A stretch of 64,000 bases of DNA from contig DAIEGT010000001.1 of NCBI GenBank assembly GCA_027356105.1, positions 61,929-125,928 of the forward strand, in the 5' to 3' direction. The translations under genes were made by a program, and so were the position numbers. The notes below the pieces were generated by a model. It was not told where the DNA came from, did not search any database, and worked only from the letters and a program-made list of their open reading frames with translations. Of this stretch, positions 13,866 to 61,857 are shown one piece after another (position 1 is the stretch's first letter; every line of letters starts with the position of its first letter). This DNA comes from Candidatus Saccharimonadota bacterium. Its GTDB lineage: Bacteria; Patescibacteriota; Saccharimonadia; Saccharimonadales; UBA4665.

Positions 13866-13911
13866 TTATTTATATGTATTATATCTGGATACGGCTTAAA
13901 TTAAAATTAAA

Positions 13912-19484: not shown

Positions 19485-19547
19485 TAGTAATTAGTTTATC
19501 AAATAAAAAAGGCGTTTGAATTGAAAGATTTTAAGCGTAAGTAATAT

Positions 19548-19623
19548 GGTACACCCGACAGGATTCGAACCTGTGACCTCTGGCTCCGCAAGCCAACGCT
19601 CTATCCAGCTAAGCTACGGGTGC
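19548..19623 (-). tRNA. tRNA-Arg (anticodon GCG)
   Basis: Hand-folded 76-nt cloverleaf. Acceptor GCACCCG/CGGGUGU, D arm GCUU/GAGC with A20, anticodon stem UUGGC/GCCAG, loop UUGCGGA, T arm ACAGG-UUCGAAU-CCUGU, encoded CCA. Confidence 0.85.
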
Positions 19624-19672
19624 AAAACTATACAATTCACCTTAGTATTATATAGGATATACTAATATAAAT

Positions 19673-19765
<93 letters not shown>

Positions 19766-39018: not shown

Positions 39019-39450
39019 TTAGGCTGCTGTAACAGAAGTACTAGCAGTATTTGCAACAAAACTTACTATAACTTGAGCGGCAATTACTACTACAATACCA
39101 ACTAAAGCATATATTAAAGTATTCTTGGCTGAACTTACCTTATTTGAATCTCCACCAGATGTTACATATTTAAAACCAGCAACAATTAACATTACTACCG
39201 AAATAACTCCAACTATATATGTAAAAGTAGTCACAATTGTGTGTGCGAGTGTTCCAAGGGTGGCTGTAGCACTACTGCTTCCACAAGAACCATTCGCTGT
39301 TCCTGTTGATGATTGTGTTATTCCATTACAAATATTAGTAATAGGGACTGTAGCATAAGCTGAACTGCTAGTAATTGGTAATAAAACTGGTACAAATGTC
39401 ATAAGACTAATTGTTAATACTGTTAAAAACTTTTTGATTTTAAGTGCCAT
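39019..39450 (-). CDS. VirB2/TrbC-like T4SS pilin paralog 1
   Basis: 143 aa with a signal peptide ending AYA, a short Cys-containing ectodomain, and two hydrophobic helices joined by the loop FKYVTSGGDSNKVSSAKNTLIYALVG. Confidence 0.7.
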   Translation of the reverse strand: MALKIKKFLTVLTISLMTFVPVLLPITSSSAYATVPITNICNGITQSSTGTANGSCGSSSATATLGTLAHTIVTTFTYIVGVISVVMLIVAGFKYVTSGGDSNKVSSAKNTLIYALVGIVVVIAAQVIVSFVANTASTSVTAA

Positions 39451-39533
39451 TTTGATCTTCCTTTATTTATAAATTATTAAAATACTTACGGTATTTAGAA
39501 ACAATTATATATTAAATCATTAAAATACAATAA

Positions 39534-39932
39534 TCAACCATTTTTAACCTTACTGAAGACTAACAACATCAGTGTACGAGATATGATGACAAATGCTAAG
39601 CCAATTAGAGCGTATGTTAAAGTTTGTTTCGCTTGAGTAACCTTATTCGAATCTCCGGAACTGGAAGAGTATCTAAACCCACTTACAATCATTAAAATAA
39701 CTGTCAAAATACCCGCTACATAAGAAAAAATATTGAGAATTGAATTTATTATATTGCTAATTGGGTTGCCTGTGTGTGCATTGTTATTTATAGTAGAGCA
39801 GACGTTGGTTGAACTTAAAGAAGAATTTGAAGAACAGGCTTTGAAGACATTTGCTGCAAATGAAGTATTTGTAACCAAAAGAGGTGTGGTTAGTATGATC
39901 ATGGAAATAATTAATACTTTACCTATTTTCAT
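39534..39932 (-). CDS. VirB2/TrbC-like T4SS pilin paralog 2
   Basis: 132 aa with a signal peptide ending SFA and the loop FRYSSSSGDSNKVTQAKQTLTYALIG between two helices. Confidence 0.7.
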   Translation of the reverse strand: MKIGKVLIISMIILTTPLLVTNTSFAANVFKACSSNSSLSSTNVCSTINNNAHTGNPISNIINSILNIFSYVAGILTVILMIVSGFRYSSSSGDSNKVTQAKQTLTYALIGLAFVIISRTLMLLVFSKVKNG

Positions 39933-40258
39933 ACTTTAATATTCCCCATAACAATATCAATAATAGTAGTAGCACTTGCTGTAATTATTCCCCCAACAAT
40001 TGTATAAATGATTGTCTTTCTAGCATTTGCAACCTTCTGAGGATTTCCTTCTGAAGTTATTAACATAATACCGCCAATCACAATCATTAAGACCGTTAAG
40101 CTGCCAATTATATAAAATACCACTCCCAGTACATCGTTTAGTGTAAGGTTTGAAGCTTTAGTAGTTGGTAGACCAGAAATACTACAAATAGCTGAATTAC
40201 CTGAAACACATACGGTTGAAACTCCTAATAAATGTATCATTCTAAATAAATTCATCAT
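39929..40258 (-). CDS. VirB2/TrbC-like T4SS pilin paralog 3
   Basis: 109 aa with the loop MLITSEGNPQKVANARKTIIYTIVG. It shares an ATGA overlap with its neighbours. Confidence 0.65.
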   Translation of the reverse strand: MMNLFRMIHLLGVSTVCVSGNSAICSISGLPTTKASNLTLNDVLGVVFYIIGSLTVLMIVIGGIMLITSEGNPQKVANARKTIIYTIVGGIITASATTIIDIVMGNIKV

Positions 40259-40620
40259 TTAATACTCGATGCTATGAAATTTACTATAATTGAGGCAGAA
40301 AATGCAATTACTAAGCCAATTAAGCCGTTTTGAATTATTTTACGAGCTTTAACAACTGATTCTGAATTACCGGCACTTGTGATATAGGCGATTCCGCCAT
40401 AAATTACATAAAAAAAGGCTAGTATTAAAATAACCCGAAGCAGTATTTCTATAATTGCAGCCACTACCAACCATATATCAGATATTGAACTAATGCTCGG
40501 CGAACAAAGACCATTGGCGCCAACTGTTCCGTTTAAATATTCATACCAGCTTGGAAAACCTAATAAATTACCGTGTTTACAAACTGTTGAGGTTGTAGCT
40601 GCTAAAATCTGAAAATTCAT
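40255..40620 (-). CDS. VirB2/TrbC-like T4SS pilin paralog 4
   Basis: 121 aa with the loop IAYITSAGNSESVVKARKIIQNGLIG. It has ATGA overlaps on both sides. Confidence 0.65.
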   Translation of the reverse strand: MNFQILAATTSTVCKHGNLLGFPSWYEYLNGTVGANGLCSPSISSISDIWLVVAAIIEILLRVILILAFFYVIYGGIAYITSAGNSESVVKARKIIQNGLIGLVIAFSASIIVNFIASSIK

Positions 40621-41192
40621 GCTTTAAAAAATCCTGCTGGAATTAAATAATTTAATATAGCGTATATAAAAATGAAAAATATTAATGCAATGATTGATGA
40701 TCGTATTCTCTTGATTGCATTTGCAACTTTCTGTGAATCACCACCTGCGGTTGTGTATAGAATACCAGCATATATAATTGAGCCAACTATTACCAGCCCG
40801 ACTCCATCAGATAAAAATCTTATTAATGAAAAAAGCAAATCAATAATTGGTGAACTATTTTGGCTACAATAAGCAGCTCCACTAGCTCCGGCTACACATG
40901 CATCACCTTTACAGCCAAAATCTATTGAGGTTGTTTGTTTTTCTGATCCAGTACCACATTGGTAAGTAGTTGGGGTTGAGACTGTTGAAGTAGTAGTAGT
41001 AGTGGTGGTGGTAGTGGTAGTTGAGTTAGGACGTGGAGTTGCAAGAACAGCATAGACCGCATTACTACCAATTAGACTAGACTGACTAATTAGTAAAAAT
41101 AATAGAACAGGCCACGATAGTTTAATGAGTTTCAAATGCAATATTTTGATTCTATTATAATATACGTTTTTTTTTGCTTTTTTATTTCGCAT
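40617..41192 (-). CDS. VirB2/TrbC-like T4SS pilin paralog 5 with poly-Thr linker
   Basis: 191 aa with a long signal/anchor, an 11-Thr run, a Cys-rich segment and the loop ILYTTAGGDSQKVANAIKRIRSSIIA between two helices. Confidence 0.65.
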   Translation of the reverse strand: MRNKKAKKNVYYNRIKILHLKLIKLSWPVLLFLLISQSSLIGSNAVYAVLATPRPNSTTTTTTTTTTTSTVSTPTTYQCGTGSEKQTTSIDFGCKGDACVAGASGAAYCSQNSSPIIDLLFSLIRFLSDGVGLVIVGSIIYAGILYTTAGGDSQKVANAIKRIRSSIIALIFFIFIYAILNYLIPAGFFKA

Positions 41193-41262
41193 ATATCATA
41201 ATTGTACTGAAGTGATAAATTAAATCAAGTTATCGAGATATAGATTTGGTATAAAAATAGAA

Positions 41263-44085
41263 ATGCATACATTTAAAAGAACATACGTCGTTGGGCTTGG
41301 TATCTTATTGATATTAATCGCCTTAGTGCTACCAGTTAGTACTACTCTTGCGGTTACAGCAACTTCAACATCTGGCGGTAACAGTACTTCTTATCAAAAC
41401 AACAATGCAGAGCTTACTTATAATGGGCAAACATTCTATGAGTGTAAGACCACTACTTTGGCCGATTTCTGTAGTTTTAGTTTTTCTGGAAATGATACAT
41501 CTTACGGGGCTCCTAACTTAACATCTTCAAACGTTGCCAATACATCTGCTTCAGGTGCAACACCTTCGAGCGGATCTTTTACCTATTATTTTAATCAATC
41601 AATGATAAATGCAATGTGTCCAGGGACTGCTGCAAATATTAGTGGTTTTCCAGCAACTTGTACAACGGGAACTATTTCGAATTTAAGTTGTAATAGTTTT
41701 TGGAATATATTTAAAAATACAAATTCAGCCTTCATTGTGTCGGGTGCTTCAAGTATAGTTAACTCAAGTGGTTTGATTAATAATACATTCGATCCTAATT
41801 CTGCAATGTATTTTACAGCCTCAAAACCATTCTCTTTCAATGATTTAACTTCTTCACCTCCAATACAAGGTACTACCTGTCTTGGCCCGAACCCAATAAC
41901 TTCATCAAGATCAATTGGTCAACCTCAAGGAAGTGTAATTAGTGTAGCTGCTGGTTCTTATGTAGTGCCATCTACTACCACAACTGGTTCAACTGGTAAC
42001 TCAAACAATAACACCAAGGCGGACTGCACAGCGAGTGGTATAGATCTAAGCTGGATTATATGTCCTGTTATTGATGGGATATCAAACATAATAAGTGGCT
42101 TCTATAACTCGGTACTTGCTCCAATGTTAAATGTTGATAGTAGCCAATTTATTGGATCTTCTAGTTTTTTCTACCAAGCCTGGTCAAATTTTAGAATAAT
42201 TGCTGATATTCTTTTAGTATTAATAATGTTGCTGGTTGTTTTTGGCGAAACAATTGGTGGTGGACTTTTAGATGCCTATACAATTAAAAAAGCTATCCCA
42301 AGATTAGTAGTAATGGTTATTCTAAGTAATCTATCTGTCTATATTGTTGTTGCTTTAATCGATGTATTTAATATTCTTGGAAAAGGAATTGAAGCTCTTC
42401 TAGTTGCGCCTTTCCCGAATCTCAATATTTCAACAAAAGATTTTTCTGGAGTCACTTCACTTACGCTTTTATTTGGCGGTATTTGGGCTGGGGCAGCTGC
42501 TTTTGGTGGAATCGCTTTCTTTTTACTGTTTTTACTTATTCCAGGTATTCTAGCGTTAGTTGCTACTTTTATAACTTTAGGCCTAAGACAAATTATAATT
42601 ATGTTTCTTCTAATTGCTTCACCGATTGCATTCATTCTATATATAATGCCAAATACGGAAAAATATTTTAAAAAGTGGTGGGGATTACTTATTAAAACCT
42701 TAATGGTATACCCAATAGTTTTTGCAATCTATGCTTTGTCTCAAATTGCTATAGTAGGGCTATTTAAAATAAACACCAGCTCAGGCACACTAAACGTTAT
42801 CGATAGTTTGCTGGCTATTTTCGCCATGTTATTACCAATATTCTTAATTCCCTTTGCATTTAAAATGTCTGGTGGATTAGTTGGTGGTGCGTATGGTTTA
42901 TTGAATAAAGCTATGAAAGGTGAGCCATATAAGCGTTTTATAGCAGGGCAAAGGAAAAAATCATTCGGCAAACAGTTTGGCAAAATGCAAAGCAATAATA
43001 GGTATAACACAGACACGAGGTTTGATAAATTAAATACAGCTAACCGATTCAGAAATAGTTTATTACAAAATGCCACACTACTACCCGAAGCCCTACAAGG
43101 TAAAAAATCACCTAGCGCTATTAAGAATAATCTAGCCGCTGCTAGAGGATTAAGAAATAATCAAATCGGTATGGAGGCCTTAAAAAACCAGAGTCCAGCA
43201 CTCCAATCTATAGGAGGAGACCCTGATGCTGTTAACGCAGGTGTAGCGCATGGCACTAATGAAGATCTTATTGCTACTTTCTTAGCTGATATCGTTGGGA
43301 AAAGGAAGGGTTCTGCGCTTACAGACCAGGAGTTACGTGATATTAAATTAAAGGCTAGGAACGTTGCTCAAGCTGTTAGGGGTATAGGTCACGGGGCATT
43401 TAAAGAAATCGCACCAACTCTGAAGGCCCAATCTTCTGGGGCATATTCAAAAAGTCCAACTTCAAACGGAATTGCAACTATGCTTAGTGAAGTTATTGCT
43501 GCATCTGATGGTAATATAGAGTTGGCGAGACAAGGAGCTATAAGAGCCACCAAAACTGCGGGAGAGGCCGGTAGGAGCGACTTAGCACTGAGCGCTGGTG
43601 ATACATTGACTGCTTTAGATGAGGTACAAAAAGTATATGATACTTATGGGACGTTTAATAGTGTTGAAGCAGTCGCAAGGCTTAGTGAAATAAATAACAA
43701 ATACTACGAAAGAATTATCCAAACCAAAGGTGCATCTGCTTTGGTTGGAGCAAAATCTTCAGCCATCGACAATATTGCACCTACAATGGTTAAAGGACTC
43801 GATAGTTATACTACGAGTGGGCCAAACTCCGATGATTTCTTCAAACGACTGGCTGCTATTGCCAATACTTACGATACGCTTAGTAGTATTAGTCCGGAAA
43901 GCGCAGCCAAATTTTCTGATCAAGTATTGTCCAGTAGAGATTTCGGTGACGGCTCTGCTACAGTAATAGAACTGCTTGAAAAACATAGAACTGATCCAAG
44001 ATTCTTAAACTTCAGAAGAGAAGGTATGATGCAATCTCCAGGTACACAGACACCAGGATCTCCGCCTACGACACCTACTGTTTAA
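41263..44085 (+). CDS. VirB6/TrbL-like polytopic T4SS channel protein with large N- and C-terminal extensions
   Basis: 940 aa. It has a signal/anchor, a ~300 aa Cys/Ser/Thr/Asn-rich ectodomain, and at least six TM helices at about residues 310-560 (e.g. GIAFFLLFLLIPGILALVATFITLGL, IIMFLLIASPIAFILYIM, LLAIFAMLLPIFLIPFAF). A ~370 aa soluble tail follows. It sits beside the VirB3/VirB4 genes. Confidence 0.6.
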   Translation: MHTFKRTYVVGLGILLILIALVLPVSTTLAVTATSTSGGNSTSYQNNNAELTYNGQTFYECKTTTLADFCSFSFSGNDTSYGAPNLTSSNVANTSASGATPSSGSFTYYFNQSMINAMCPGTAANISGFPATCTTGTISNLSCNSFWNIFKNTNSAFIVSGASSIVNSSGLINNTFDPNSAMYFTASKPFSFNDLTSSPPIQGTTCLGPNPITSSRSIGQPQGSVISVAAGSYVVPSTTTTGSTGNSNNNTKADCTASGIDLSWIICPVIDGISNIISGFYNSVLAPMLNVDSSQFIGSSSFFYQAWSNFRIIADILLVLIMLLVVFGETIGGGLLDAYTIKKAIPRLVVMVILSNLSVYIVVALIDVFNILGKGIEALLVAPFPNLNISTKDFSGVTSLTLLFGGIWAGAAAFGGIAFFLLFLLIPGILALVATFITLGLRQIIIMFLLIASPIAFILYIMPNTEKYFKKWWGLLIKTLMVYPIVFAIYALSQIAIVGLFKINTSSGTLNVIDSLLAIFAMLLPIFLIPFAFKMSGGLVGGAYGLLNKAMKGEPYKRFIAGQRKKSFGKQFGKMQSNNRYNTDTRFDKLNTANRFRNSLLQNATLLPEALQGKKSPSAIKNNLAAARGLRNNQIGMEALKNQSPALQSIGGDPDAVNAGVAHGTNEDLIATFLADIVGKRKGSALTDQELRDIKLKARNVAQAVRGIGHGAFKEIAPTLKAQSSGAYSKSPTSNGIATMLSEVIAASDGNIELARQGAIRATKTAGEAGRSDLALSAGDTLTALDEVQKVYDTYGTFNSVEAVARLSEINNKYYERIIQTKGASALVGAKSSAIDNIAPTMVKGLDSYTTSGPNSDDFFKRLAAIANTYDTLSSISPESAAKFSDQVLSSRDFGDGSATVIELLEKHRTDPRFLNFRREGMMQSPGTQTPGSPPTTPTV

Positions 44086-44177
44086 ATAAATTGATAAGTA
44101 TGGTAAATATTTTTAAAAAAATTTTTATAAGAGTTCCAAAGATATAAAATTAAGTGATTTTGTTATAATCTAATTAT

Positions 44178-45086
44178 ATGTCAACATACAAAGTTATTCA
44201 GGATATAGAAGCAGAAGATCATATAATTGGTCCATTCTCGCTTAGGCAGTTCGTTTACCTTCTAATATCACTCTTCTTTGGTTATATTTCCGTCATAATT
44301 ATGCTAAAAGGAGCTGTTTATTTTGATATATTGTTTATACCTTTCGTATTATTTTTTGGTTTTTTGGCATTTCCGTTTATTAAAGATCAACCAACAGAAG
44401 TTTGGGCATTAGCAAAAATTAGATTCTTGGCTAAACCTCGAAAAAGACTTTGGAATCAGACAGGTATAAAAAACAATGTTACTATAACTGTTCCAAAGAA
44501 GATAAACAAACAACTTACCAAAAATCTAGATAATAATGAAGTTAAAAATCGACTGAAAAGATTATCTGAAACTATCGATTCAAGAGGATGGGTCATTAAA
44601 AATATTGATGGGCCAATCCTGCAGTTTGATAAAGACGATCAGGATGCCGATCGATTAATTATGCCGACTAAAGAAGTTCCAGACGAAACTGATTTAGACA
44701 ACAAATTCGATATTCTAGACTCAGATGCAAATCCAACGGCAAGTAAAATTGATTCTATGATAACTGAAACTGAATATAATCATCGTCAAAGATTAATAAA
44801 CCTTGTTAATTCAGCACCTCAAACACCTCAATTACCTAAAGCGCATAAAGCAATAACAAGTCCTGTTGAACTTCCGATAAAGTTGAAGAAAACTGAAACT
44901 ACTCAAGAAATCCAAGCACCCACAGTACCAGCAAAACCCGTTACTGAGATAACGAAAGAAACAAATAATTCAGTTAAAAATGCTATAATAAATTTTTCAG
45001 GTAACGACAATTTAAGTCTCCAGACAATGTCCAAAGAGATAAATAAAAAAACGTTAGAGCAAGAAGTTGTTATATCATTAAGATAG
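44178..45086 (+). CDS. PrgI/VirB3-like T4SS membrane protein
   Basis: 302 aa. The N-terminus YKVIQDIEAEDHIIGPFSLRQFVYLLISLFFGYISVII plus a second TM matches the PrgI-family pattern. It lies upstream of virB4. Confidence 0.6.
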   Translation: MSTYKVIQDIEAEDHIIGPFSLRQFVYLLISLFFGYISVIIMLKGAVYFDILFIPFVLFFGFLAFPFIKDQPTEVWALAKIRFLAKPRKRLWNQTGIKNNVTITVPKKINKQLTKNLDNNEVKNRLKRLSETIDSRGWVIKNIDGPILQFDKDDQDADRLIMPTKEVPDETDLDNKFDILDSDANPTASKIDSMITETEYNHRQRLINLVNSAPQTPQLPKAHKAITSPVELPIKLKKTETTQEIQAPTVPAKPVTEITKETNNSVKNAIINFSGNDNLSLQTMSKEINKKTLEQEVVISLR

Positions 45087-45105
45087 GTTTAGCGGTGGGC
45101 AATAA

Positions 45106-45927
45106 ATGAATCCAAATAATTTTCAGAGCAATCAACCAAACCCGAGTATTGTTGGTCAAAACAACTTAAGTAATACACCCACCCAAAACAGTATTAACCC
45201 AAATAGCACTCAAAATATACTAGAAATTGCTGAGATTAGAGACGGTATAGTTATTATGAACGATGGTTCTTTTAGATCTGTTATCATGGTAAAAAGTATC
45301 AACTTTGACTTAATGAGCCAAGAAGAGCAGGAAGCAATTGAATTCAGCTACCAAGGATTTTTAAACTCATTGTATTTCCCAATCCAAATCTTTATACATT
45401 CCCAAAAAATTGATTTAAAACCCTACATTGATCGATTAGATAAAATTAGAACAGAGCAAGATAATATGCTTCTAGCTCTTTTAATGGCCGATTATCTAGA
45501 TTTTATTGAAGCTGTCAGCCAAAAAGCCAATATTATGGACAAACTATTTTATATAATAATCCCTTACTACCCAAATAATGAAGAACAGAAAACTGTTTAT
45601 GGTAGCAAAAGCTTTTTATTTGGTTTAGCAGATCTTTTCTCGAAAAACCCATCTAAGCACGTAATTATTAATGAAGCTGATTTGGAAAAAGCTAAGACTG
45701 AACTGCGAAACAGAGTACAATCAGTACTATCTGGTTTAGCTCAAACAAATTTACAAAGCCTACCTCTTGATACCCAAGAGTTAATTGAGTTATATTATGA
45801 TGTCTATAATCCTGACACCTCAACTAGACAACAACTAACAAATATTGATAATTTGACTGAAGATTTTATAGTAAAAGGCGACGGCGTAGCCCCTCAACCA
45901 CACCTTGATAATGGATTAAAGGGTTAA
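45106..45927 (+). CDS. T4SS-associated hypothetical protein (VirB4 N-terminal-domain-like pattern)
   Basis: 273 aa with a Q/N-rich N-terminus, then ILEIAEIRDGIVIMNDGSFRSVIMVKSINFDLMSQEEQEAIEFSYQGFLNSLYFPIQIF. This resembles the start of monoderm VirB4/PrgJ-type proteins. It has no P-loop. Confidence 0.4.
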   Translation: MNPNNFQSNQPNPSIVGQNNLSNTPTQNSINPNSTQNILEIAEIRDGIVIMNDGSFRSVIMVKSINFDLMSQEEQEAIEFSYQGFLNSLYFPIQIFIHSQKIDLKPYIDRLDKIRTEQDNMLLALLMADYLDFIEAVSQKANIMDKLFYIIIPYYPNNEEQKTVYGSKSFLFGLADLFSKNPSKHVIINEADLEKAKTELRNRVQSVLSGLAQTNLQSLPLDTQELIELYYDVYNPDTSTRQQLTNIDNLTEDFIVKGDGVAPQPHLDNGLKG

Positions 45928-45937
45928 CTTAGGATTA

Positions 45938-47770
45938 ATGATGTTTAACAAGAAAAACCAAGTAAGTCCCGTAAATTTAGCCAAGGAACAAGAGCTACGT
46001 GAACAAAAGGAAGTTCAAGCAGCTTTCCAAAAAGGTATTACAGCTTTAAGAGATTTTATTGCCCCAAGTTCGATTGAATTTTCTTCAAGTTATTTTCAAA
46101 TAGGTACTAGATTTGCTAGAACTTTTTATGTTTATGGTTATCCTAGACAACTCTATACGGGCTGGCTCAGTGGTTTAGTTAATATTGATGAAGTTATGGA
46201 TATGGCCTTGTATGTCTACCCAGTAAACAGCCAAGTAGTACTTGAAAATCTAAGGAAAAAAGTTAGTCAATTAGAAGCCGGTATTCAAATTGATAACGAA
46301 AAAGGTAAGGTCCGAGATCCTTCAAAAGAAGCAGCTATAACTGATGCCGAAGAGATTAGAGATAAGTTGCAGGTGGGCGAAGAAAGATTTTTCCGTTTTG
46401 GACTTTACTTTACAATATTCGGTAACTCAAAAGAAGATTTAGACTTCATTTCAAATAAAGTCGAATCAATGTTAGGTCAACAATTAATTTATTCAAAACC
46501 AGCATCATCTCAACAGGAACAAGGATTTAACAGTACCATCCCTCAAATGACCGATCACTTACAGGTTAGAAGAAACCTTAGTACTGGTGCATTAAGTACA
46601 AGTTTTCCTTTCACTAGTGCTGATTTAACCCAGGAAAATGGCATTCTGTATGGGGTAAACATGCATAACTCGGGACTTGTTATATTTGATAGATTCTCAC
46701 TCGAAAATAGTAACTCGGTTGTTTTTGCTAAATCTGGTGCCGGTAAATCTTTTACTGTTAAGCTAGAAGCTCTGAGAAGCTTGATGTTTGGCACAGAAAT
46801 AATGATCATTGATCCAGAAAACGAATACCAGAAAATGTGTGAAGCAGTTGGTGGGGCATACATAAGACTAAGCTTAAATTCGAACACTAGATTAAATCCG
46901 TTTGACCTTCCAAAAGTCGTCGACACTGAAGAAGCCGATAATGCGCTACGCAGTAACTTAATAACTCTTCATGGATTATTCAGGTTAATGATGGGTGGAG
47001 CGCAGAATCAAATGATGGGTGGTGAATCTGTCTTAGCTCCAGCCCTAAATCCAATTGAAGAATCTGATTTAGACACTGCGCTAATTGCAACTTATGAAAA
47101 GGCTGGTATTACAAACGATCCTTTTACGCATAATTCACCACCTCCAACAACTCTTGATTTATATGACACCTTACTTCACATGGGTGGCACTGGTCCTCAG
47201 TTAGCACAAAGATTAAGAAAATATACTACAGGGACTTTTGCTGGTATTTTCTCGCAACTTTCCAATATTGAAATAAATAACCCTCTTGTTGTTTTTAATA
47301 TTCGAGATTTAGAGGATGAATTAAGACCTGTTGCTATGTATATAATCTTAAACTTTATCTGGAATAAAACTAAAAGCGACCAGAAAAAAAGAATTCTCAT
47401 AGTAGATGAGGCTTGGCAGCTAATGAAGTACGAGGATTCGGCTAACTTCTTGTTCTCGCTAGCAAAAAGAGCAAGAAAATATAATCTAGGTATTACGACT
47501 ATTTCGCAGGATGTTGAAGATTTCATCGGTTCAAGGCTAGGTAGGGCAATCGTAGCTAATGCTAGTATGCAAATACTCCTTAAACAGTCCCCTACAGCAG
47601 TTGATTTATTGTCTGATGTCTTTAAACTAACTGCGGAAGAGAAAAAAAGGTTAAGTCAATTTCCAATCGGCCAAGGTTTATTTTTTGCTGGTCAAAACCA
47701 TGTTCACATTCAAATAATTGCCTCTCCACAAGAAAATCAGTTAATCAATACTAACCCAGTAAACAAATAA
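45938..47770 (+). CDS. virB4: VirB4-family T4SS ATPase
   Basis: 610 aa with Walker A (AKSGAGKSFTVK), Walker B (RILIVDEAWQL) and an N-terminal FARTFYVYGYPRQLYTGWLSGL pattern typical of VirB4/TraE/PrgJ. Confidence 0.85.
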   Translation: MMFNKKNQVSPVNLAKEQELREQKEVQAAFQKGITALRDFIAPSSIEFSSSYFQIGTRFARTFYVYGYPRQLYTGWLSGLVNIDEVMDMALYVYPVNSQVVLENLRKKVSQLEAGIQIDNEKGKVRDPSKEAAITDAEEIRDKLQVGEERFFRFGLYFTIFGNSKEDLDFISNKVESMLGQQLIYSKPASSQQEQGFNSTIPQMTDHLQVRRNLSTGALSTSFPFTSADLTQENGILYGVNMHNSGLVIFDRFSLENSNSVVFAKSGAGKSFTVKLEALRSLMFGTEIMIIDPENEYQKMCEAVGGAYIRLSLNSNTRLNPFDLPKVVDTEEADNALRSNLITLHGLFRLMMGGAQNQMMGGESVLAPALNPIEESDLDTALIATYEKAGITNDPFTHNSPPPTTLDLYDTLLHMGGTGPQLAQRLRKYTTGTFAGIFSQLSNIEINNPLVVFNIRDLEDELRPVAMYIILNFIWNKTKSDQKKRILIVDEAWQLMKYEDSANFLFSLAKRARKYNLGITTISQDVEDFIGSRLGRAIVANASMQILLKQSPTAVDLLSDVFKLTAEEKKRLSQFPIGQGLFFAGQNHVHIQIIASPQENQLINTNPVNK

Positions 47771-47852
47771 AGTATACTCCGGTATTTTAATCTATAAATA
47801 AGTAGTTAATAATTCTCTCATGATATAAAATAGAATTAAACTAAACTAAACT

Positions 47853-50183
47853 ATGCAACAGCAACTACTGAAATTTCTAGTTAAAAATAAAAAAATTAGT
47901 ATAACATCGATTATAATAATTGCACTTGGTGGAACAATATTTTTCTCAGGCGCATTTTTACCTGCTTTAGAATTACAAAATCTAGAGAAATTGATGCTAA
48001 AGTATACAACTAAAATTGAAGCACATATGGAACAAACCGCTTCTAGAAAAGTTTTTAAACTTTTAGCATGTAAGGGTTTTGGTGGAGGAGTAGGTGGCGC
48101 AGCTTTTGGTTGTAATAAATCAAATCCTGAAGAAGAGATGACCAAAGCTCAAAACATAACTGAAGCAGATGCGGCTGCTGCAGCTGGTGAAGAGATGACA
48201 TCTGAAATCGATAAATTTAACTTTAATGATCCACAAATTACCAAAACTTTATCCAATCAAGGAATCAAGGTAAACAGTGATGCGACCGGACAATTAACTG
48301 GTTTTAAGGACACCTCGAATGGTAGCTCGCTTACAGAAAATGACTTTAGTAATAATTCAAGTATTTCTACCGAATTAAACACCGCCTTACCTGAAAGCAG
48401 CGTAAATCTAATAGACAATGTTGAACCAATGTTAAATAGTGAGGATGGGGTTGATTTTGCAGGAATTGATGCTCCGCCGACCGATACTCAATCACAAGTT
48501 GATAATCTTATTGAATCTGACGTACAAAGTGGTGTTATTGAACAAACAGCAACTGCTGCAACAACTGATAAAAACCCAACCCCAACAGATCAAAATAATG
48601 CAAGTGCCAATAATACTGTCGAAAACGCCGTTCAAGCTACCCAGGATGCTCTAAATTCAGGCGCTACTGAAACTCAGGCTTTAAGTGCTGGAGTATCTAA
48701 AATGAGTCTGGGTAATTCATTACTAGCAAGTAGTATAGCAACATCTGTATGTAGTATTTATAATGCTGCTGCACATGGTTCGGGTCAAAGAATTGTAACT
48801 ATAACCAATTTATTAATGAGACATTCTGGATTAATATTTAGCTTGGCTGATCAAATGAAAGTAGGTAGTCCTACACCTACGGCTGTGGGTTCTTTTATGA
48901 ACATTCTTCATGCTAAAAATAGTTCGGGTCAAACTTACGAATCTTCAGTTTCTTATAGAAAAATGTCGGGTTTACCTGTATATAGGAATAGTCCGGATAT
49001 TTCACCCTCCAGCCTTCCTATAGCTAGTAGTGGTACATTATTAGTTAATGAAACTACAAAAATCATGAACACTATGGGTGGAACTTTTACATGTAAGATT
49101 TTAAACAGCCCGTTTGGCGGATTATTCCAAGGTGCGCTCGGAATTGTACAATTAGTTACCGATATTGGTAGCTTTGGTGCTAGTCAAGTTGCTATAACGG
49201 CAGGTCTTTTGGCTGGGAATTACGAAATCCAGCATACCTTAATTCCAGATATTCTAAAATATTTCACAGTAGTAGGATTAAGTGGAATTGAGAACGGACC
49301 ATCTTGGGTTAATAATGCTTTTCTGGGAAGTGTTATAACAAGTAATAGAATCGCTCAAAGTTTAGGTGGTCAACCAATGTCAACTACAGCTGCTAACTCA
49401 GCGGCTGCTGTTGTGGGTTACGATCAAGCTAAACAAGAGTCTAGTTTACCACTTACAACTAGATTATTTTCAATCGATAATCCTTCTTCTCTGATATCAA
49501 GGGTAATCCCATATATTCCTACTAGTATATCTGGACTTTTTTCGGATATATCTAATTATTTTACCGACTTCTTTAGTACCTTATTTAAAAATACTGCTGA
49601 TTTATTAATGCCTTCAAAAATTTTTGCTGCAACAAATTATCAAAGTCCAGGCGCATCTTACGGTGTAACAACTTATGGTTTATCAGATTCACAGGCAACA
49701 AAATATCCAATCATCCAAAACGAAAACTATCTCTACGGATCAGATAATCTAACTCTTCCAGACGGAAGTGTGTTGTCTTTAAAAAGAATTACTTTAACCG
49801 GCAATCCTTATAGTTACCCAAATGGTGCAGCTGATAATTCTGCGACTGATTTATACCACTGTTTCAGTCAAAGCTTTGCTTCTCAAAGTAGCTCGAGTTC
49901 AACTATCCCGCTTAATTTTAGTAGTGGCAACAATGATCCAATTTGCGGTTCAATGGGTAGTTTAGATTCTGCGAATGACCCACCACACCCGATTGGAGAA
50001 AATGAAGTTTTATATGCTTACTGTCACACATTTGCAGCTACATTTGTTAGTGATACTCTGACTGAAGATGAGTGTGTGAAACAATTAACTCCTCAATACA
50101 GTGACGATATAGGCCATTTTTCACAGTACATACTAGACAGTGCTGTAGTTCATAATTATTATTCAATGATGAGTACCCAATGA
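47853..50183 (+). CDS. large membrane-anchored orphan protein of the T4SS-like operon
   Basis: 776 aa with an N-terminal TM (ISITSIIIIALGGTIFFSGAFL), an acidic/low-complexity linker and a ~500 aa domain with no recognisable motif. Its stop overlaps the next start (ATGA). Confidence 0.5.
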   Translation: MQQQLLKFLVKNKKISITSIIIIALGGTIFFSGAFLPALELQNLEKLMLKYTTKIEAHMEQTASRKVFKLLACKGFGGGVGGAAFGCNKSNPEEEMTKAQNITEADAAAAAGEEMTSEIDKFNFNDPQITKTLSNQGIKVNSDATGQLTGFKDTSNGSSLTENDFSNNSSISTELNTALPESSVNLIDNVEPMLNSEDGVDFAGIDAPPTDTQSQVDNLIESDVQSGVIEQTATAATTDKNPTPTDQNNASANNTVENAVQATQDALNSGATETQALSAGVSKMSLGNSLLASSIATSVCSIYNAAAHGSGQRIVTITNLLMRHSGLIFSLADQMKVGSPTPTAVGSFMNILHAKNSSGQTYESSVSYRKMSGLPVYRNSPDISPSSLPIASSGTLLVNETTKIMNTMGGTFTCKILNSPFGGLFQGALGIVQLVTDIGSFGASQVAITAGLLAGNYEIQHTLIPDILKYFTVVGLSGIENGPSWVNNAFLGSVITSNRIAQSLGGQPMSTTAANSAAAVVGYDQAKQESSLPLTTRLFSIDNPSSLISRVIPYIPTSISGLFSDISNYFTDFFSTLFKNTADLLMPSKIFAATNYQSPGASYGVTTYGLSDSQATKYPIIQNENYLYGSDNLTLPDGSVLSLKRITLTGNPYSYPNGAADNSATDLYHCFSQSFASQSSSSSTIPLNFSSGNNDPICGSMGSLDSANDPPHPIGENEVLYAYCHTFAATFVSDTLTEDECVKQLTPQYSDDIGHFSQYILDSAVVHNYYSMMSTQ

Positions 50184-51550
50184 AATCAATACTATCGATT
50201 ATCTTTTCATTCATAATTTTAGCAGTTTTTAGTGTAACTAATATTTATGCTCTAACTCCTGCTAAGTGGTATTCAATAAACACAGATTCGGTTTACTACA
50301 CCGGTCAAAGTACTACCTGTTCTACCCCAGTTATGTCGTTACTTTCCCAAAATCCTAATTCATTAAATAGTACCTGGTCAAGTACTGCTTCACCTCCTTA
50401 TTCAATCGAAAATTTCGTTATAAATGTCTTGCAAGATGTAGCAACCAAACTAAACTTACCTTCATCTGATACGGTTACACAGCAACATGTTTTAGCTTTA
50501 GTTGCTTGGGCATATTTAGAGGGTGGAAATATACATAATACTTTTTGGTTTAATCCTTGGAATACTTCTTATAGCCAACCCAACTTACTAGCAGCCGTTC
50601 AAAGTCCAGGTGGATTCCCAACCTACGCAAGTTTTAATGCTGGAGTTGAGGCAGCGGCAATTTCAATGACGGGTTCATATCAAACAAGAATTGGTACGGT
50701 TTTAGCTAATCCATCCTCAAACGCGACCGATGTATTAAACGCAGTCGCATATCCTTTACCTAATTATCCAAGCAATCTCGGCTGGGATACTTCCAGCCCG
50801 CCAGCTGTATATGGTTCAAAGCTATTGCAAGTACTGTCTCAAGCAGAAAACTCTTACAGCCAATATGCTAGCATTGTTATTGGACCAGGTCAGCAAGACA
50901 CTAATCATGTCTCAACATCAAGCTTAGCTTATAATTATGGCTCCCTCGGTTCGACTCAAACTGTTACTAACCCAACTCCAAACGCTTTAGTTACTTCAAA
51001 TCCTTGTTCAACCGCAATTAATTGCCAAACCAATTCTTCTGGAGCTAGTTCGGTTAATTCGGCTATACTCTGTGAAGCTCAAAGATATAACGGAATATAT
51101 TACTCATGGGGTGGCGGTCATGGTAGTTACGCAACATTCAGACAGAATTGTCCTGAAACAGCTATTTCTAGCGCTGCAGCTTCATCAACCTCAGCTAATC
51201 CTGGTCCGTGTGGAACAGACTGTAGTGGTTTAGTAACAGTAGCTATTGATGCGGCGTTTAATCAAAATTATTCTATGTCGGTTAGTGATACGACAGGATT
51301 GATGGTAGGAGACGGCGCGCAATACTGGCAACCAATTTCTCTAAACCAAGTACAGCCAGGAGATATAGCTACCTGGCACGGCGTATTAAACGGCACGGCT
51401 GATGGACACGTAGAAATAGTTGATCATTATGACTCTGCTTCTAATACACTCTACACTTTTGGTTCACATTCAACCGGCAGTAAAACTAGTGAGATAAACT
51501 CAACCAATTACTTTATGGCCTATTATAGGTGGACAGGACCAACCAGCTAA
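50180..51550 (+). CDS. secreted cell-wall hydrolase with C-terminal NlpC/P60 domain (VirB1-like role)
   Basis: 456 aa with a signal peptide. The C-terminal part has GPCGTDCSGLVTVAID (catalytic Cys context DCSG) and GDIATWHG...DGHVEIV (His). The ~280 aa N-terminal domain is unassigned. Confidence 0.7.
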   Translation: MKSILSIIFSFIILAVFSVTNIYALTPAKWYSINTDSVYYTGQSTTCSTPVMSLLSQNPNSLNSTWSSTASPPYSIENFVINVLQDVATKLNLPSSDTVTQQHVLALVAWAYLEGGNIHNTFWFNPWNTSYSQPNLLAAVQSPGGFPTYASFNAGVEAAAISMTGSYQTRIGTVLANPSSNATDVLNAVAYPLPNYPSNLGWDTSSPPAVYGSKLLQVLSQAENSYSQYASIVIGPGQQDTNHVSTSSLAYNYGSLGSTQTVTNPTPNALVTSNPCSTAINCQTNSSGASSVNSAILCEAQRYNGIYYSWGGGHGSYATFRQNCPETAISSAAASSTSANPGPCGTDCSGLVTVAIDAAFNQNYSMSVSDTTGLMVGDGAQYWQPISLNQVQPGDIATWHGVLNGTADGHVEIVDHYDSASNTLYTFGSHSTGSKTSEINSTNYFMAYYRWTGPTS

Positions 51551-51942
51551 TTATGAAAAAATTTTCTATATTCTTTGGTTTAATGGTTTTATTATATCTA
51601 ATTTCTAGCCTTTTACAGGGCTCGTTAAATTATGTCTCTTTAAACAATAATGTTTTTTATCAGCCAATACTTAACGCCACTTCATCTAAAACTAATCTAA
51701 TAAGCAATATTAATAATTTAGTAATTGTTTCTTATAAAGCCTTTAGTGATGGGTTTTATCTTGTTAATATAAATAACAATAGCGGAACTGATAGCGCTGT
51801 AGTTATCCTTCAAGACGTCAAAGGTACATATACCGTTATCATGGGGCCTGGAACAACTTTTAATATCAATGGAGCGGTTGGTTTGCCAAACGATTTAATT
51901 AGTTATCTTAACTCAAAAGGACTTAATAATGCGGCGCATTAA
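51529..51942 (+). CDS. hypothetical membrane-anchored protein (T4SS-like operon)
   Basis: 137 aa with one TM and a beta-rich domain. The start is probably the MKKFSIFF Met a few codons in. Confidence 0.4.
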   Translation: MDRTNQLIMKKFSIFFGLMVLLYLISSLLQGSLNYVSLNNNVFYQPILNATSSKTNLISNINNLVIVSYKAFSDGFYLVNINNNSGTDSAVVILQDVKGTYTVIMGPGTTFNINGAVGLPNDLISYLNSKGLNNAAH

Positions 51943-52486
51943 GCTTGCAATACTATTTTTGGGGACATTTTTACTATTGATTAGTATCTATAAGTTCTTT
52001 GTTTATTTTAATAATCTTTCTAACTCAGGTTCTGTTCAAATTAACACTTCTGAATCAACCCTTACTTCCTATATCTATAATTCTAGCTCAACTTACTACT
52101 CATTAGGTAGTGGAGATGTAAAGTTCAGAATCAAACCAGGTCATTACAGTATGCTGTTTGATTATAATAACAATCTTTCTTACAGGAACATTGTTGTTAC
52201 TAATGGATCGTCTCAAAATATTTCTATTAATATTGTTGATCAGTTTTTAAAAAATACTGATACAAACAATTTAATTAAGTTATTACCACAATATGGTCCA
52301 GCTTTTGAATATTCAATAACTTATTCTTATTCTTTCTCTTCGGGTATTGCCATGCCACTGGTTACTATCTCTTATACTGATCAAAAATCACTTAGCGATG
52401 CTTTGGCTTGGTTAGAGCAAGTAGGGGCTAATTATAGTTTGTTAAATATTAACAAAGTACCGGTATCGTCTGTGCCTTTTAATTAG
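51929..52486 (+). CDS. hypothetical membrane-anchored protein (T4SS-like operon)
   Basis: 185 aa with one TM (LAILFLGTFLLLISIYKFFVYF) and a beta-rich domain. It overlaps the upstream gene. Confidence 0.4.
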   Translation: MRRIKLAILFLGTFLLLISIYKFFVYFNNLSNSGSVQINTSESTLTSYIYNSSSTYYSLGSGDVKFRIKPGHYSMLFDYNNNLSYRNIVVTNGSSQNISINIVDQFLKNTDTNNLIKLLPQYGPAFEYSITYSYSFSSGIAMPLVTISYTDQKSLSDALAWLEQVGANYSLLNINKVPVSSVPFN

Positions 52487-53705: not shown

Positions 53706-55184
53706 ATGTTCGATCAACAGGGACATCAAGAAGACTCAAACGTTATAGTTGGACCTTTTTACCCTAATCAAAACCAAAATAAAGTTAAAAAAATTAAGCT
53801 TTTATCTTTATTTAATAACATGGGCTTACCTCTTAAGCTAGTATCTTTAGTTATTTTGATATTTATCTTATCTGGGGCATTTTTTGCGATTAAATATAGT
53901 TTTACTAAGTTCAGTACGGCATCACTTCCATCTCAGACCAAAACAATACTTACTACGAAGTCTGGCTCTCCTAAAAATAAAACCGTCGTTACTACTAATA
54001 ACTCGACTACTAGTAAAACCACTACATCTAATTCATCAACTATACCATCCAAAACGCCCGTAGCTACGGTAAAAATATCCTCTGGTAATACTACTGTTAA
54101 TAAGCCAAGTCCTAGTGGAAATTCAACCTCTTCAGGAGGATCAAGCAGCAGTACAGGTACAAGTTCTGGTAGCACAGGATCATCTGGTAGCTCTGGGTCT
54201 TCAGGAGGATCAAGCAGTGGATCTGTTCCTTATTACGGAGTTGTAACAGCTGGGAATTCAAAGGCTAATTGTATTCAGTTAAATATTCCTAATGGCTTTA
54301 TAAATGATTCGCAGTTTTCTGCAGTTACAGCAATCACTGGTGTAGCTTACAACTGTGTTATAACCTATAACGATAATATGCCAGCTTGGTCTAATTGGGA
54401 TAACCCTTGGCAATTTACAAGTTATTATAATTGGGGAGCTTGGGTAGCAGAATCAACTAACCATCAAGTTGTCTTGGCTGAAGATTTAATACCGACTTCT
54501 TTAGAGAACAATAGTAACCCCTTAACGTGGGAGCAGTCCTGTGCGGCCGGTAACTACAATAGCTATGCAACTACCCTAGGTGATAATCTTGTTGCTGAAG
54601 GTGGTGCTAACACTATCATAAGACTTGGCGTTGAAGCTAATGGAACCTGGGAGGACGATTTTGTTGGAACAACTACCCAAGAACAGAACGCTTGGGCACA
54701 ATGTTTTGACCAAGAAGTTTCCGCAATGAGAGCAGTACCTAACAATCATTTTTTATTTGTCTGGAACCCTAATATCTGTACTCAAAATCTTCCTCTAAAT
54801 GAATGGTATCCGGGAAATGCATATGTCGATATTATTGGTGCCGACGCTTACAATCTAGATTGTGGCACCAGTAAAACTGTTTCGCAGGAAGGATGGACGG
54901 CATACTCCACTGACAGTTCTTCTAATAGTCCTAATAACCCAAATTTTCCTAGTTTAGCTAATATTGAGTCTTTCGCCGTGGCCAACGGCAAACCTTTTGC
55001 ATTGCCTGAATGGGGTCTAGATAATGGTTATCCGGACGACGCAACCTATGTAACTAATATAGCTAACATAGTTAGAAATACTAATACTTCTTTTCAAGCT
55101 TATTTTGATTGTGGTTGTGATAGTATTACACCCCTTGGTAATACAATTCCTCTAGCAACTGCAGCCTATTCATCAGGTTTTTAA
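53706..55184 (+). CDS. membrane-anchored glycoside hydrolase, clan GH-A (GH26-like)
   Basis: 492 aa with one TM, a long Ser/Thr/Gly linker, and a catalytic-domain pattern: IRLGVEANGTWEDDF (acid/base Glu), AYVDIIGADAYN and KPFALPEWG (nucleophile Glu). Confidence 0.45.
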   Translation: MFDQQGHQEDSNVIVGPFYPNQNQNKVKKIKLLSLFNNMGLPLKLVSLVILIFILSGAFFAIKYSFTKFSTASLPSQTKTILTTKSGSPKNKTVVTTNNSTTSKTTTSNSSTIPSKTPVATVKISSGNTTVNKPSPSGNSTSSGGSSSSTGTSSGSTGSSGSSGSSGGSSSGSVPYYGVVTAGNSKANCIQLNIPNGFINDSQFSAVTAITGVAYNCVITYNDNMPAWSNWDNPWQFTSYYNWGAWVAESTNHQVVLAEDLIPTSLENNSNPLTWEQSCAAGNYNSYATTLGDNLVAEGGANTIIRLGVEANGTWEDDFVGTTTQEQNAWAQCFDQEVSAMRAVPNNHFLFVWNPNICTQNLPLNEWYPGNAYVDIIGADAYNLDCGTSKTVSQEGWTAYSTDSSSNSPNNPNFPSLANIESFAVANGKPFALPEWGLDNGYPDDATYVTNIANIVRNTNTSFQAYFDCGCDSITPLGNTIPLATAAYSSGF

Positions 55185-57908: not shown

Positions 57909-57919
57909 ATTCCTCCTAT

Positions 57920-58053
57920 TTATCCTATATAATAAACGAATTATGAATAGTTTTCCACAATTAAATTATTTATTCAATATTTTTGACTACAAAAGGGCTC
58001 TAAAGAGATAACTTATCCACATTTTTATTCTCTATCTATATAATAGTGGATAA
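57920..58053. promoter_or_regulatory. oriC-type DnaA-box cluster between dnaA and rpmH
   Basis: It contains TTATCCTAT (57920-57928), TTTTCCACA (57951-57959), a perfect TTATCCACA (58013-58021) and AGTGGATAA, which is TTATCCACT on the - strand (58045-58053). Confidence 0.7.
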
Positions 58054-58132
58054 CAATTGAAGAAAAGAGGAAAACTTGTTATACTTGTAGGGCTAAACAT
58101 TGTTAATTTTACTAAATACGAAAGTTTAAACT

Positions 58133-61461: not shown

Positions 61462-61857
61462 TTATAAATATTGACCAGTATTCCCTTGTTGAGAAACAAT
61501 AGGATCGCCATTTTCATCTACTTCTTCGAGTCTAATTATAAAATTATTTGGTAGCCATGGAGAAATCACTGCATTTCTAGCTGTTTGAAGCACGCCTCTT
61601 AGAGGACATACTATTAGACCATCACTATCATAAGTTGGTCCAGAACAGGGAATTTTTTCTCTGACACTCTGTAGAAAAAAGTTTGCAGCTCCCAATGCTC
61701 CAATCGCTCTATCTGTAGATGGATGAATTGAATTAAAATGTTCTAAGCCTTCCAAGGCTGCTTTAATAATTACTTCTTCCGGACAAATATGTTCCGTAGT
61801 TTCTGGACCAAACTCTTGCATAAACATATTATATACTATATTAGTAAAATATGCCAA
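61462..61857 (-). CDS. hypothetical protein
   Basis: 131 aa, soluble, with four Cys. No family recognised. Confidence 0.35.
   Translation of the reverse strand: MAYFTNIVYNMFMQEFGPETTEHICPEEVIIKAALEGLEHFNSIHPSTDRAIGALGAANFFLQSVREKIPCSGPTYDSDGLIVCPLRGVLQTARNAVISPWLPNNFIIRLEEVDENGDPIVSQQGNTGQYL

Follow-up and report, generated by a model that had tools for sequence, protein, structure and literature searches.

Is a type IV secretion system (T4SS)-like locus beside the replication origin of a Saccharimonadia (TM7) bacterium a conjugative element, or is it a fixed machine with a task of its own in the cell that carries it? The question is raised by positions 39019-52486 of a 64,000-nucleotide stretch of a Candidatus Saccharimonadota bacterium genome (assembly GCA_027356105.1, contig DAIEGT010000001.1, positions 61,929 to 125,928 of the forward strand), and we refer to the whole stretch as the window. 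A preliminary description of this DNA had read the locus as a chromosomal, non-conjugative apparatus in which VirB2-type pilins are mixed with a monoderm-style core; we confirmed its observations in part and found its interpretation supported in part. We consider it very probable that the locus is a chromosomal T4SS-like system of Saccharimonadia, orthologous to the one known from Southlakia epibionticum, and that its essential job is most likely pilus-based contact with, or a conduit to, the host, and not conjugation.

The locus comprises 13 open reading frames (ORFs), five on the minus strand and eight on the plus strand, and several of them overlap by a few bases. Their coordinates and strands were exactly those of the preliminary description. 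Lengths are in amino acids (aa).

39019..39450, minus strand: VirB2/TrbC-type pilin 1, 143 aa (PF18895, E 1.9e-13; TrbC, 30.3 bits against a cutoff of 27.9)
39534..39932, minus strand: VirB2-type pilin 2, 132 aa (PF18895, E 1.2e-10; pilin alignment)
39929..40258, minus strand: VirB2-type pilin 3, 109 aa (PF18895, E 8.8e-13; pilin alignment)
40255..40620, minus strand: VirB2-type pilin 4, 121 aa, the most divergent (PF18895, E 7e-6, 26.5 bits against a cutoff of 26.6)
40617..41192, minus strand: VirB2-type pilin 5, 191 aa (PF18895, E 1.3e-9, residues 116-183; pilin alignment)
41193..41262, no strand: AT-rich divergent intergenic region of 70 bp, the spacer between pilin array and main operon
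41263..44085, plus strand: probable extended VirB6/TrbL-like protein, 940 aa (transitive TrbL match, Foldseek, transmembrane windows)
44178..45086, plus strand: PrgI/VirB3-like membrane protein, 302 aa (PF12666 PrgI, 34.7 bits against a cutoff of 27, residues 5-91)
45106..45927, plus strand: TrsD-like protein, 273 aa, homologous to the N-terminal domain of VirB4 and encoded by its own gene (NCBIfam)
45938..47770, plus strand: VirB4 ATPase of the CD1110 (MPF-FATA) type, 610 aa (conju_CD1110, 358 bits against a cutoff of 325)
47853..50183, plus strand: N-terminally anchored, mostly alpha-helical protein, 776 aa (full HMMER search, hidden Markov model (HMM) of the loci, AlphaFold 2 (AF2) model; positional counterpart of SEML1_0007)
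50180..51550, plus strand: two-domain peptidoglycan hydrolase, 456 aa (NLPC_P60, E 8.7e-4; family profile)
51529..51942, plus strand: small N-terminally anchored protein, 137 aa (iterated HMM; C-terminal domain in common with the next gene)
51929..52486, plus strand: N-terminally anchored protein, 185 aa (iterated HMM, relatives in 23 loci; positional counterpart of SEML1_0005)

The orthologous system is the cluster SEML1_0006-0019 of Southlakia epibionticum ML1, flanked by SEML1_0004 and SEML1_0005 (Wang 2023, Cell; PMC10633639). That study reported a Gram-positive-like composition, unexpected pilins and no coupling or relaxase proteins in the cluster, and its transposon sequencing scored all core genes as essential for growth on the host (Tables S1 and S2 therein). 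We found the window locus in the same slot, with dnaA-dnaN-recF on one side and hsp20/tRNA-Ser on the other, and with the same divergent layout. Both clusters contain a pilin array, a VirB6-like protein, PrgI, a protein of ~290 aa, a VirB4 of ~610 aa, a large protein, a hydrolase with lysozyme and cysteine-peptidase domains and small exported proteins, and neither contains a coupling protein or a relaxase. Because neighbours, gene order and sizes agree, we conclude that the window locus is, by these sequence characters, an orthologue of the Southlakia cluster. It is a trimmed version, with five pilins rather than six, one VirB6-like gene rather than two with an NTF2-like gene between them, a post-VirB4 protein of 776 rather than 1114 aa, and one lysozyme-like domain rather than two in the hydrolase. 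The peptidase domain annotated for SEML1_0007 was not detected in the 776-aa protein. Unlike Southlakia, the window carries a GH26-like gene between recF and dnaN (see below).

The same architecture has been surveyed across the phylum (Quinonero-Coronel 2025, Microb Genom; PMC12102498). There, the Patescibacteria VirB4 forms an MPF-FATA-related clade, TrsD, PrgI and VirB6 are present, the TrsD-like component is the commonest T4SS partner of VirB4, pilin arrays hold 2-11 genes at ~25% identity, relaxases are rare and dnaA is close by; a 2025 FEMS review restates these features (PMC12857230). The window locus shares with this clade its MPF-FATA-related VirB4, TrsD and PrgI beside virB4, a probable VirB6 homologue and proximity to dnaA/dnaN. 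No part of the argument is new to the literature, in which the pilin arrays, the lack of a relaxase and the closeness to dnaA had all appeared before, and since Wang 2023 and Quinonero-Coronel 2025 describe the system, the interpretation in the preliminary description was essentially correct but a rediscovery. The system has been described as the first T4SS on which the survival of its own carrier bacterium depends (PMC12857230, PMC11665869), and its importance lies in the system as a whole, which is conserved across a class of ultrasmall epibionts; the window is a further well-assembled example. Our analysis adds the observation that the motor is better conserved than DnaA, and a pilin-bearing cassette in Bacillota.

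We measured conservation in 80 loci from different species, fetched through VirB4, and scored synteny in the 40 that had full flanks. The order hsp20, pilins (minus strand), VirB6-like (plus strand), PrgI, TrsD-like, VirB4, variable genes, recF, dnaN and dnaA (all three minus strand) was found in 38 of these 40 loci, and PrgI and the TrsD-like protein were present in every one. Median identity to the window protein was 82% for VirB4, 68% for DnaA, 66% for the TrsD-like protein, 60% for DnaN, 45% for both RecF and PrgI, 36-43% for the pilins, 29% for the VirB6-like protein and 27% for the 776-aa protein. The cytoplasmic motor is better kept than DnaA, and the surface parts evolve fast. A motor conserved above DnaA together with very fast-evolving exposed parts marks a core machine that is passed on vertically and turns its surface to the host, and not a mobile element; the almost unalignable surface parts fit a host-facing interface under diversifying pressure.

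The stretch between VirB4 and recF is variable in the relatives, where it spans 6-9 kb and aligns poorly. Iterated local HMMs nevertheless recovered all four genes downstream of virB4 at the same position: 39/40 loci have a member of the 776-aa family, 26/40 have the hydrolase and 23-24 have the small anchored proteins. Between VirB6 and PrgI the window has no gene, whereas relatives carry unrelated, heterogeneous and fast-evolving genes there. The 273-aa protein, the 776-aa protein and the two small proteins had been called orphans, and about half of the coding capacity had been said to lack a recognisable family. Neither statement stood: profile searches in related Saccharimonadia placed each of the four in a conserved family, and all 13 proteins belong to families kept at the same position across Saccharimonadia.

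We then considered marks of mobility. The surroundings are housekeeping DNA of a low-GC Saccharimonadia genome (polA, dnaG, rpoD, argS, valS, groEL, recF, dnaN, dnaA, rpmH, rnpA and yidC), the immediate flanks are hsp20, two tRNA-Ser genes and recF, and G+C across the locus is 0.33-0.38 with no compositional break. An Rfam scan of the window returned four tRNAs and nothing else. No Pfam match to a type IV coupling protein (T4CP; VirD4/TcpA) was found in the 49 larger window ORFs or in the 10 kb beyond the window, and ORFs of 130 and 204 aa at 11930-12980 had no Pfam match at E 0.001, nor had those at 61462-61857 and 16668-17159. There was likewise no integrase among the window ORFs by Pfam or in the 10 kb beyond, and no profile match in the window to the VirB7/9/10 core complex or the VirB11 ATPase. 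A direct-repeat search for att sites returned only short chance-level pairs and the pilin paralogy, and flanking repeats were absent. On the flanks, the uniform composition and the lack of VirD4, VirB9/10/11, integrase and att repeats in the 64 kb, the preliminary description was accurate. Its conclusion that the apparatus is chromosomal and not an integrative and conjugative element (ICE) was borne out by class-wide synteny, the conservation of VirB4 above DnaA and the lack of T4CP, integrase and att sites. Given this synteny and conservation, the housekeeping flanks, and the absence of integrase, T4CP, att repeats and a G+C break, we conclude that the locus is a fixed chromosomal machine, not an ICE.

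A fixed locus could also be the decaying remnant of an ancient conjugative element that no longer functions. The absence of T4CP, VirB8 and relaxase within the locus and the high divergence of several genes would fit such a remnant, but all 13 ORFs are intact and tightly packed or overlapping, the median identities of VirB4 (82%) and the TrsD-like protein (66%) indicate strong purifying selection, and the Southlakia orthologues are essential. We give decay virtually no credence. A pseudogenised remnant and an ICE were both rejected on the synteny and conservation data.

The best-conserved part of this fixed machine is the motor. The 610-aa VirB4 spans positions 177-733 of the 752 in conju_CD1110 (NCBIfam 'VirB4-like conjugal transfer ATPase, CD1110 family'), scores 98.9 bits against PF19044 P-loop_TraG, matches AAA_10, and matches 4AG5, the solved C-terminal domain of a Thermoanaerobacter VirB4, at E 8e-51. 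It is 80-84% identical to hundreds of Saccharimonadales VirB4 proteins and at most 38% identical to plasmid VirB4, and by these similarities we place it in the Patescibacteria clade, related to MPF-FATA. The TrsD-like and PrgI/VirB3-like genes lie directly upstream of virB4, as in Patescibacteria T4SS. For the 273-aa protein, the matches fall in the N-terminal parts of VirB4 models, namely conju_CD1110 at 6-100 (E 2.6e-7), VirB4_plasma/Mbov_0397 at 98-288 and VirB4_CagE at 18-187, and it also matches TrsD NF041427 (E 4e-7); these NCBIfam matches have E values of 1e-5 to 1e-7 and are each below the curated cutoff. Because this protein matches the N-terminal parts of VirB4 and the ATPase covers 177-733 of the CD1110 model, we conclude that the two together are, as judged from their profiles, a split VirB4. 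Alignment of the 273-aa family with the VirB4 family by hhalign gave no match, as it should if they correspond to separate portions of a complete VirB4. Nor did the 273-aa family match anything when its profile was searched against PDB. The PrgI/VirB3-like protein has an N-terminal PrgI domain with two transmembrane segments, followed by a tail of ~210 aa. The scores listed above for PrgI, together with the P-loop_TraG, AAA_10, conju_CD1110 and 4AG5 matches of VirB4, uphold the assignments first made for 44178-45086 and 45938-47770.

The 940-aa protein has a signal anchor, a Cys-containing exo-domain of ~270 aa, a polytopic transmembrane core at residues ~260-555 and a helical-repeat C-terminal domain of ~380 aa. 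It had been proposed as a VirB6/TrbL-like giant. No direct Pfam or NCBIfam match was found, and to that extent the proposal lacks a profile of its own; it gained support from the polytopic core and by two indirect routes. Residues 255-582 align with P0310, a homologue in Saccharibacteria RAAC3 (30% identity, E 4e-42), and the equivalent segment of P0310 passes the Pfam TrbL/VirB6 model PF04610. In addition, the highest-probability PDB matches of the AF2 model in Foldseek were R388 TrwI/VirB6 chains (7O3V_F, probability 0.90; 8RTD_L, 0.84), with a target TM-score of 0.39-0.45; at E about 0.7-1 these matches are weak. A PDB profile search with the VirB6-like family returned noise alone (haemagglutinin HA2 and PLC-beta, E above 0.05). 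With moderate confidence, we regard the 940-aa protein as a probable extended VirB6.

All five minus-strand ORFs matched PF18895 T4SS_pilin (E 1.9e-13 to 7e-6), four of them above the gathering score, and pilin 1 also passes TrbC, so that the proposal of five VirB2/TrbC-like pilins is sound. Their common layout is that of VirB2: after the signal peptide comes an N-terminal region that is variable and contains Cys, and then a pair of hydrophobic helices linked by a conserved T-S-x-G-D/N-S-x-K-V loop. In pilin 1 the loop between the two transmembrane helices reads TSGGDSNKV, and this protein additionally matched the NCBIfam Mbov_0395 pilin-like model (E 4.9e-9); pilin 4 keeps the layout of two helices and a polar loop in the alignment. 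Pairwise identity among the five was 23-34%, compared with ~25% in the tandem divergent VirB2-like pilins of PMC12102498. Pilin 5, the one nearest the main operon, has an N-terminal extension of ~100 aa with a run of ~11 threonines (residues ~58-70) and four cysteines, and may be a glycosylated or tip-type variant. Southlakia has a pilin of comparable length, SEML1_0015 (185 aa). A tblastn search of pilin 1 against the PLSDB plasmids gave no match.

Downstream of virB4, full HMMER searches assigned the 776-aa protein to a family of at least 150 cluster representatives of 800-1300 aa, of which a word-indexed search had found four relatives. The protein has one N-terminal anchor, invariant C300, C414 and C670, and conserved DLLHCF and RFRQYLLD motifs. 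Its AF2 model has a pLDDT of 78 and a pTM of 0.83, and Foldseek searches of PDB and BFVD returned nothing at E below 0.5. On this model, it may be a new fold specific to the secretion system. A large family with a confidently predicted fold and no match among solved structures is a further addition of the present analysis.

The 456-aa protein has a signal anchor, a phage-tail-lysozyme-like domain and a C-terminal NlpC/P60-CHAP domain with DCSG and GHV motifs. The preliminary description had named an NlpC/P60 hydrolase. The single sequence falls below threshold for NLPC_P60 (19.7 against a cutoff of 23, E 8.7e-4), whereas the family profile backs the assignment: against PDB it matched the phi29 gp13 lysozyme domain (3CSQ, E 5e-19) and, weakly, a CHAP lysin (E 0.013). 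The nearly invariant glutamate of the family, E114, is retained. We predict that this hydrolase is a functional VirB1 analogue. The iterated HMM of the 137-aa protein found relatives in 24 loci and cross-matched the family of the 185-aa protein. From the alignment and its position, the latter would combine a PEGA-like beta domain with the shared C-terminal domain; its counterpart SEML1_0005 is annotated as PEGA (Wang 2023, Table S2; PMC10633639).

Where do the pilins come from? The conjugative MPF-FATA systems of monoderms (pCF10 Prg, pIP501 Tra and the CTn2 CD1110 type) share with the window a CD1110-type VirB4, PrgI/VirB3, a probable VirB6/PrgH-type channel protein, a two-domain wall hydrolase like PrgK or TraG, and a VirB2-like small protein (PrgF, according to the ter Beek 2025 preprint). 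Unlike them, the window locus has no T4CP, relaxase, VirB8-like protein (PrgL) or adhesin, and no oriT is known from it, though no search aimed at one was made; its VirB4 is split into TrsD-like and ATPase parts, it has five pilin paralogues, and it is chromosomally fixed and vertically inherited, with a VirB4 at most 38% identical to any plasmid copy. The VirB8 result covers the NTF2-fold PrgL/TraM type, with no match among the locus proteins in Pfam and NCBIfam; the two small proteins were not modelled. The Agrobacterium VirB/VirD4 system (MPF-T) has VirB2, VirB3, VirB4, VirB1-like and, probably, VirB6 functions in common with the window. Unlike that system, the window lacks VirB5, VirB7, VirB8, VirB9, VirB10, VirB11, VirD4 and an outer-membrane core complex, and the organism is monoderm.

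The best plasmid matches to the window VirB4 were monoderm megaplasmids, at 30-38% identity. On the Pontibacillus plasmid NZ_CP062975.1 (locus 4110-14102) we found two pilins, a 779-aa protein, a two-transmembrane protein, a TrsD-like protein, VirB4 and a giant peptidase. One pilin is 31% identical to pilin 1 over 147 aa (E 3e-12), the TrsD-like protein directly upstream of VirB4 is 30% identical to the 273-aa protein (E 2e-29), and VirB4 is 36% identical. Chemotaxis and flagellar genes adjoin this cassette. Jeotgalibacillus CP009417.1 (locus 8670-14691) has a similar order, and no relaxase or T4CP is annotated near either cassette (within 9-10 kb for the pair, 9 kb for Pontibacillus). These non-mobilizable Bacillota megaplasmid cassettes therefore have the order of the window, with pilins, a large membrane protein, a small two-transmembrane protein, TrsD-like, VirB4 and a giant hydrolase-like protein; they differ in identity (30-36%), in having two pilins rather than five, in their free-living hosts and in not being origin-proximal. 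The view that pilins are unusual in monoderm systems, and are here mixed with a monoderm core, did not survive this comparison: VirB2-like pilins occur in Pontibacillus in the same order, and VirB2-like PrgF proteins are reported in nearly all Gram-positive conjugative T4SS (ter Beek 2025 preprint). The occurrence of the whole cassette, with its pilins, in the same order on Bacillota megaplasmids speaks for pilins that came down together with the monoderm system and against a graft from diderms.

A third plasmid cassette, that of the actinomycetote Embleya (NZ_CP108778.1), carries the nearest plasmid-borne VirB4 (38%). It is preceded by a pilin-like ORF, a 753-aa protein and a 'PrgI family protein' (349 aa, locus 8365-9414), whose N-terminus matches the window PrgI and whose middle matches the TrsD-like protein (E 3e-10). 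This PrgI::TrsD fusion supports a physical VirB3-TrsD-VirB4 assembly. The Embleya VirB4 is followed by a T4CP, a 'replication-relaxation family' protein (an annotation name, family membership not having been scored here) and an NlpC/P60 protein.

The Embleya arrangement bears on whether the window locus could serve conjugation, and so does a gene within the window itself. The preliminary description had held that nothing in the 64 kb looks like a relaxase and that no DNA-transfer genes are in view. Both statements were contradicted by a MOBC-type gene 15 genes from virB4.

62230-63099, plus strand: MOBC-type Replic_Relax protein, 289 aa (PF13814, 50 bits against a cutoff of 25.3)

PF13814 Replic_Relax belongs to the MobC relaxase superfamily (PMC5357655). 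The protein has an N-terminal wHTH-like region, and its putative PD-(D/E)xK-type nuclease residues H136, D142, D175, E194 and K207 are invariant among five homologues. The window genome would be among the minority with a MOBC-type relaxase homologue within 20 coding sequences of virB4, of which PMC12102498 lists 15 cases. The profile match and the invariant residues favour a conjugative DNA-transfer system, either an integrated element or Hfr-like, in which this protein would serve as relaxase and some other part of the genome would encode a T4CP, and such a system also draws support from the T4CP and replication-relaxation genes that directly follow the Embleya virB4 and from T4CP homologues being common elsewhere in Patescibacteria genomes (Quinonero-Coronel 2025, PMC12102498). 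However, the Replic_Relax gene lies outside the T4SS cluster, 9.7 kb away across oriC and inside a polysaccharide-synthesis cluster. In a relative, the equivalent place is taken by a homologue of 50% identity, so that the gene behaves like a resident of the chromosome. The protein had no match among the PLSDB plasmids by tblastn and no BLAST-level similarity to the Embleya protein. The lack of T4CP, integrase and att repeats in the 64 kb and the 10 kb beyond, the synteny of the T4SS block in 38/40 species and a VirB4 better conserved than DnaA also speak against transfer, as does the report that the Southlakia T4CP homologue is dispensable while the T4SS is essential (PMC12102498). We judge conjugation improbable. 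In the corresponding history, to which we give similarly little weight, the T4SS would not be wholly separate from DNA processing: the machine, with its pilins, would derive from a conjugative MOBC/T4CP module like those of actinobacteria or Bacillota, and could still nick and move origin-proximal chromosomal DNA or take up host DNA; alternatively, the relaxase may have been exapted. The MOBC-type gene near oriC is a lead to follow across Saccharimonadia.

What, then, would a fixed, non-conjugative machine do? With no coupling ATPase nearby, and with the Southlakia T4CP homologue dispensable, its essential role is most likely not conjugation. From the known biology of VirB systems, we propose that VirB4, held at the membrane by VirB3 and VirB6, would extract pilins from the membrane and polymerise them, with VirB6 as the platform, to give a short pilus or tube. 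The cell wall would be opened by the hydrolase, and the Cys-rich helical 776-aa protein and the PEGA-like proteins would form the exposed, host-facing end. The assembly could then move macromolecules to or from the host bacterium during epibiotic growth, either effectors outward or host nucleic acids and nutrients inward. The sequence shows which parts there are, how they lie in the membrane and how well each is conserved; the steps are modelled on VirB systems.

Inward movement has a more specific form, a DNA or RNA uptake machine like Helicobacter pylori ComB or archaeal Ced, importing host nucleic acids for nucleotides that the epibiont cannot make. Such a role was proposed in a PNAS perspective (PMC11665869), a 2026 preprint describes host-RNA feeding with possible T4SS pili at the interface, and the locus is without T4CP and relaxase. 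The window VirB4 also matched the DNA-import ATPase models CedB (E 2.4e-15) and CedD (3.2e-7), far below their cutoffs, but these matches reflect the shared P-loop domain alone, and no sequence feature points to a direction of transport. We regard uptake as possible though on balance doubtful, and as a sub-case of host contact through a pilus or conduit, not a true alternative to it.

Several points weigh against the host-contact machine that we prefer. Its function is read from orthology; the pilus is a prediction, and any substrate or direction of transport is conjectural. The VirB6 assignment depends on the Pfam match of a homologue and on Foldseek matches with non-significant E, a VirB8-like protein was not found in the locus, and the lack of a structural relative makes the role of the 776-aa protein a guess. 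The T4CP search reached the window and 10 kb, not the rest of the genome. The nearest plasmid-borne VirB4, that of Embleya, adjoins a T4CP and a replication-relaxation protein, and with a MOBC-type Replic_Relax gene ~10 kb from the locus across oriC, a residual DNA-transfer role is conceivable, if improbable.

The position of the locus relative to the origin could be defined from a spacer near dnaA.

57909..58132, no strand: probable oriC in the dnaA-rpmH spacer (three DnaA-box-like sites; GC skew)

The sole perfect DnaA box in the 64 kb, TTATCCACA, is at 58013, one-mismatch boxes are at 57951 and 58045, and the cumulative GC skew reaches its minimum at 54-57 kb. As the boxes lie in the dnaA-rpmH spacer near this minimum, the locus ends ~5.5 kb from the probable oriC, close to the ~6 kb first estimated. 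The main operon (41263-52486, ~11 kb) is opposite in direction to dnaA, dnaN and recF, and these gene orientations agree with the earlier statement that it runs head-on to the fork leaving the origin through those genes. We conclude that both the place near the origin and the orientation go back to the ancestor of the class. The orientation relative to recF, dnaN and dnaA is common to 38/40 related species and Southlakia. The pilin array, unlike the main operon, is co-directional with the fork. The literature consulted considers gene dosage, not head-on orientation. The 41193..41262 spacer is presumed to hold divergent promoters; a promoter and terminator scan gave counts equal to those of shuffled controls, that is, at chance level, and for this reason we left it unused.

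The gene inserted between recF and dnaN encodes a candidate cell-surface glycosidase.

53706-55184, plus strand: membrane-anchored protein with a GH26-like glycosidase domain, 492 aa (between recF and dnaN)

The protein has a long Ser/Thr/Gly linker, and a tblastn search of the 80 fetched loci returned no homologue. The spacing between recF and dnaN is ~1.1 kb in most of these loci, and the insertion is limited to the lineage of the window. GH26 is the sole Pfam family found in 50 members of the 776-aa family, in two of the 50, and this co-occurrence hints at a possible functional link between the GH26-like gene and the secretion locus.

Away from the locus, G+C in the window is 0.26-0.32 over the first 17 kb (polA, a cation ATPase gene, rpoD, dnaG and argS) and 0.33-0.40 in the remainder. 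The step lies near a PIN-domain gene (18157-18537) and a tRNA-Arg/tRNA-Ser pair (19547-19764).

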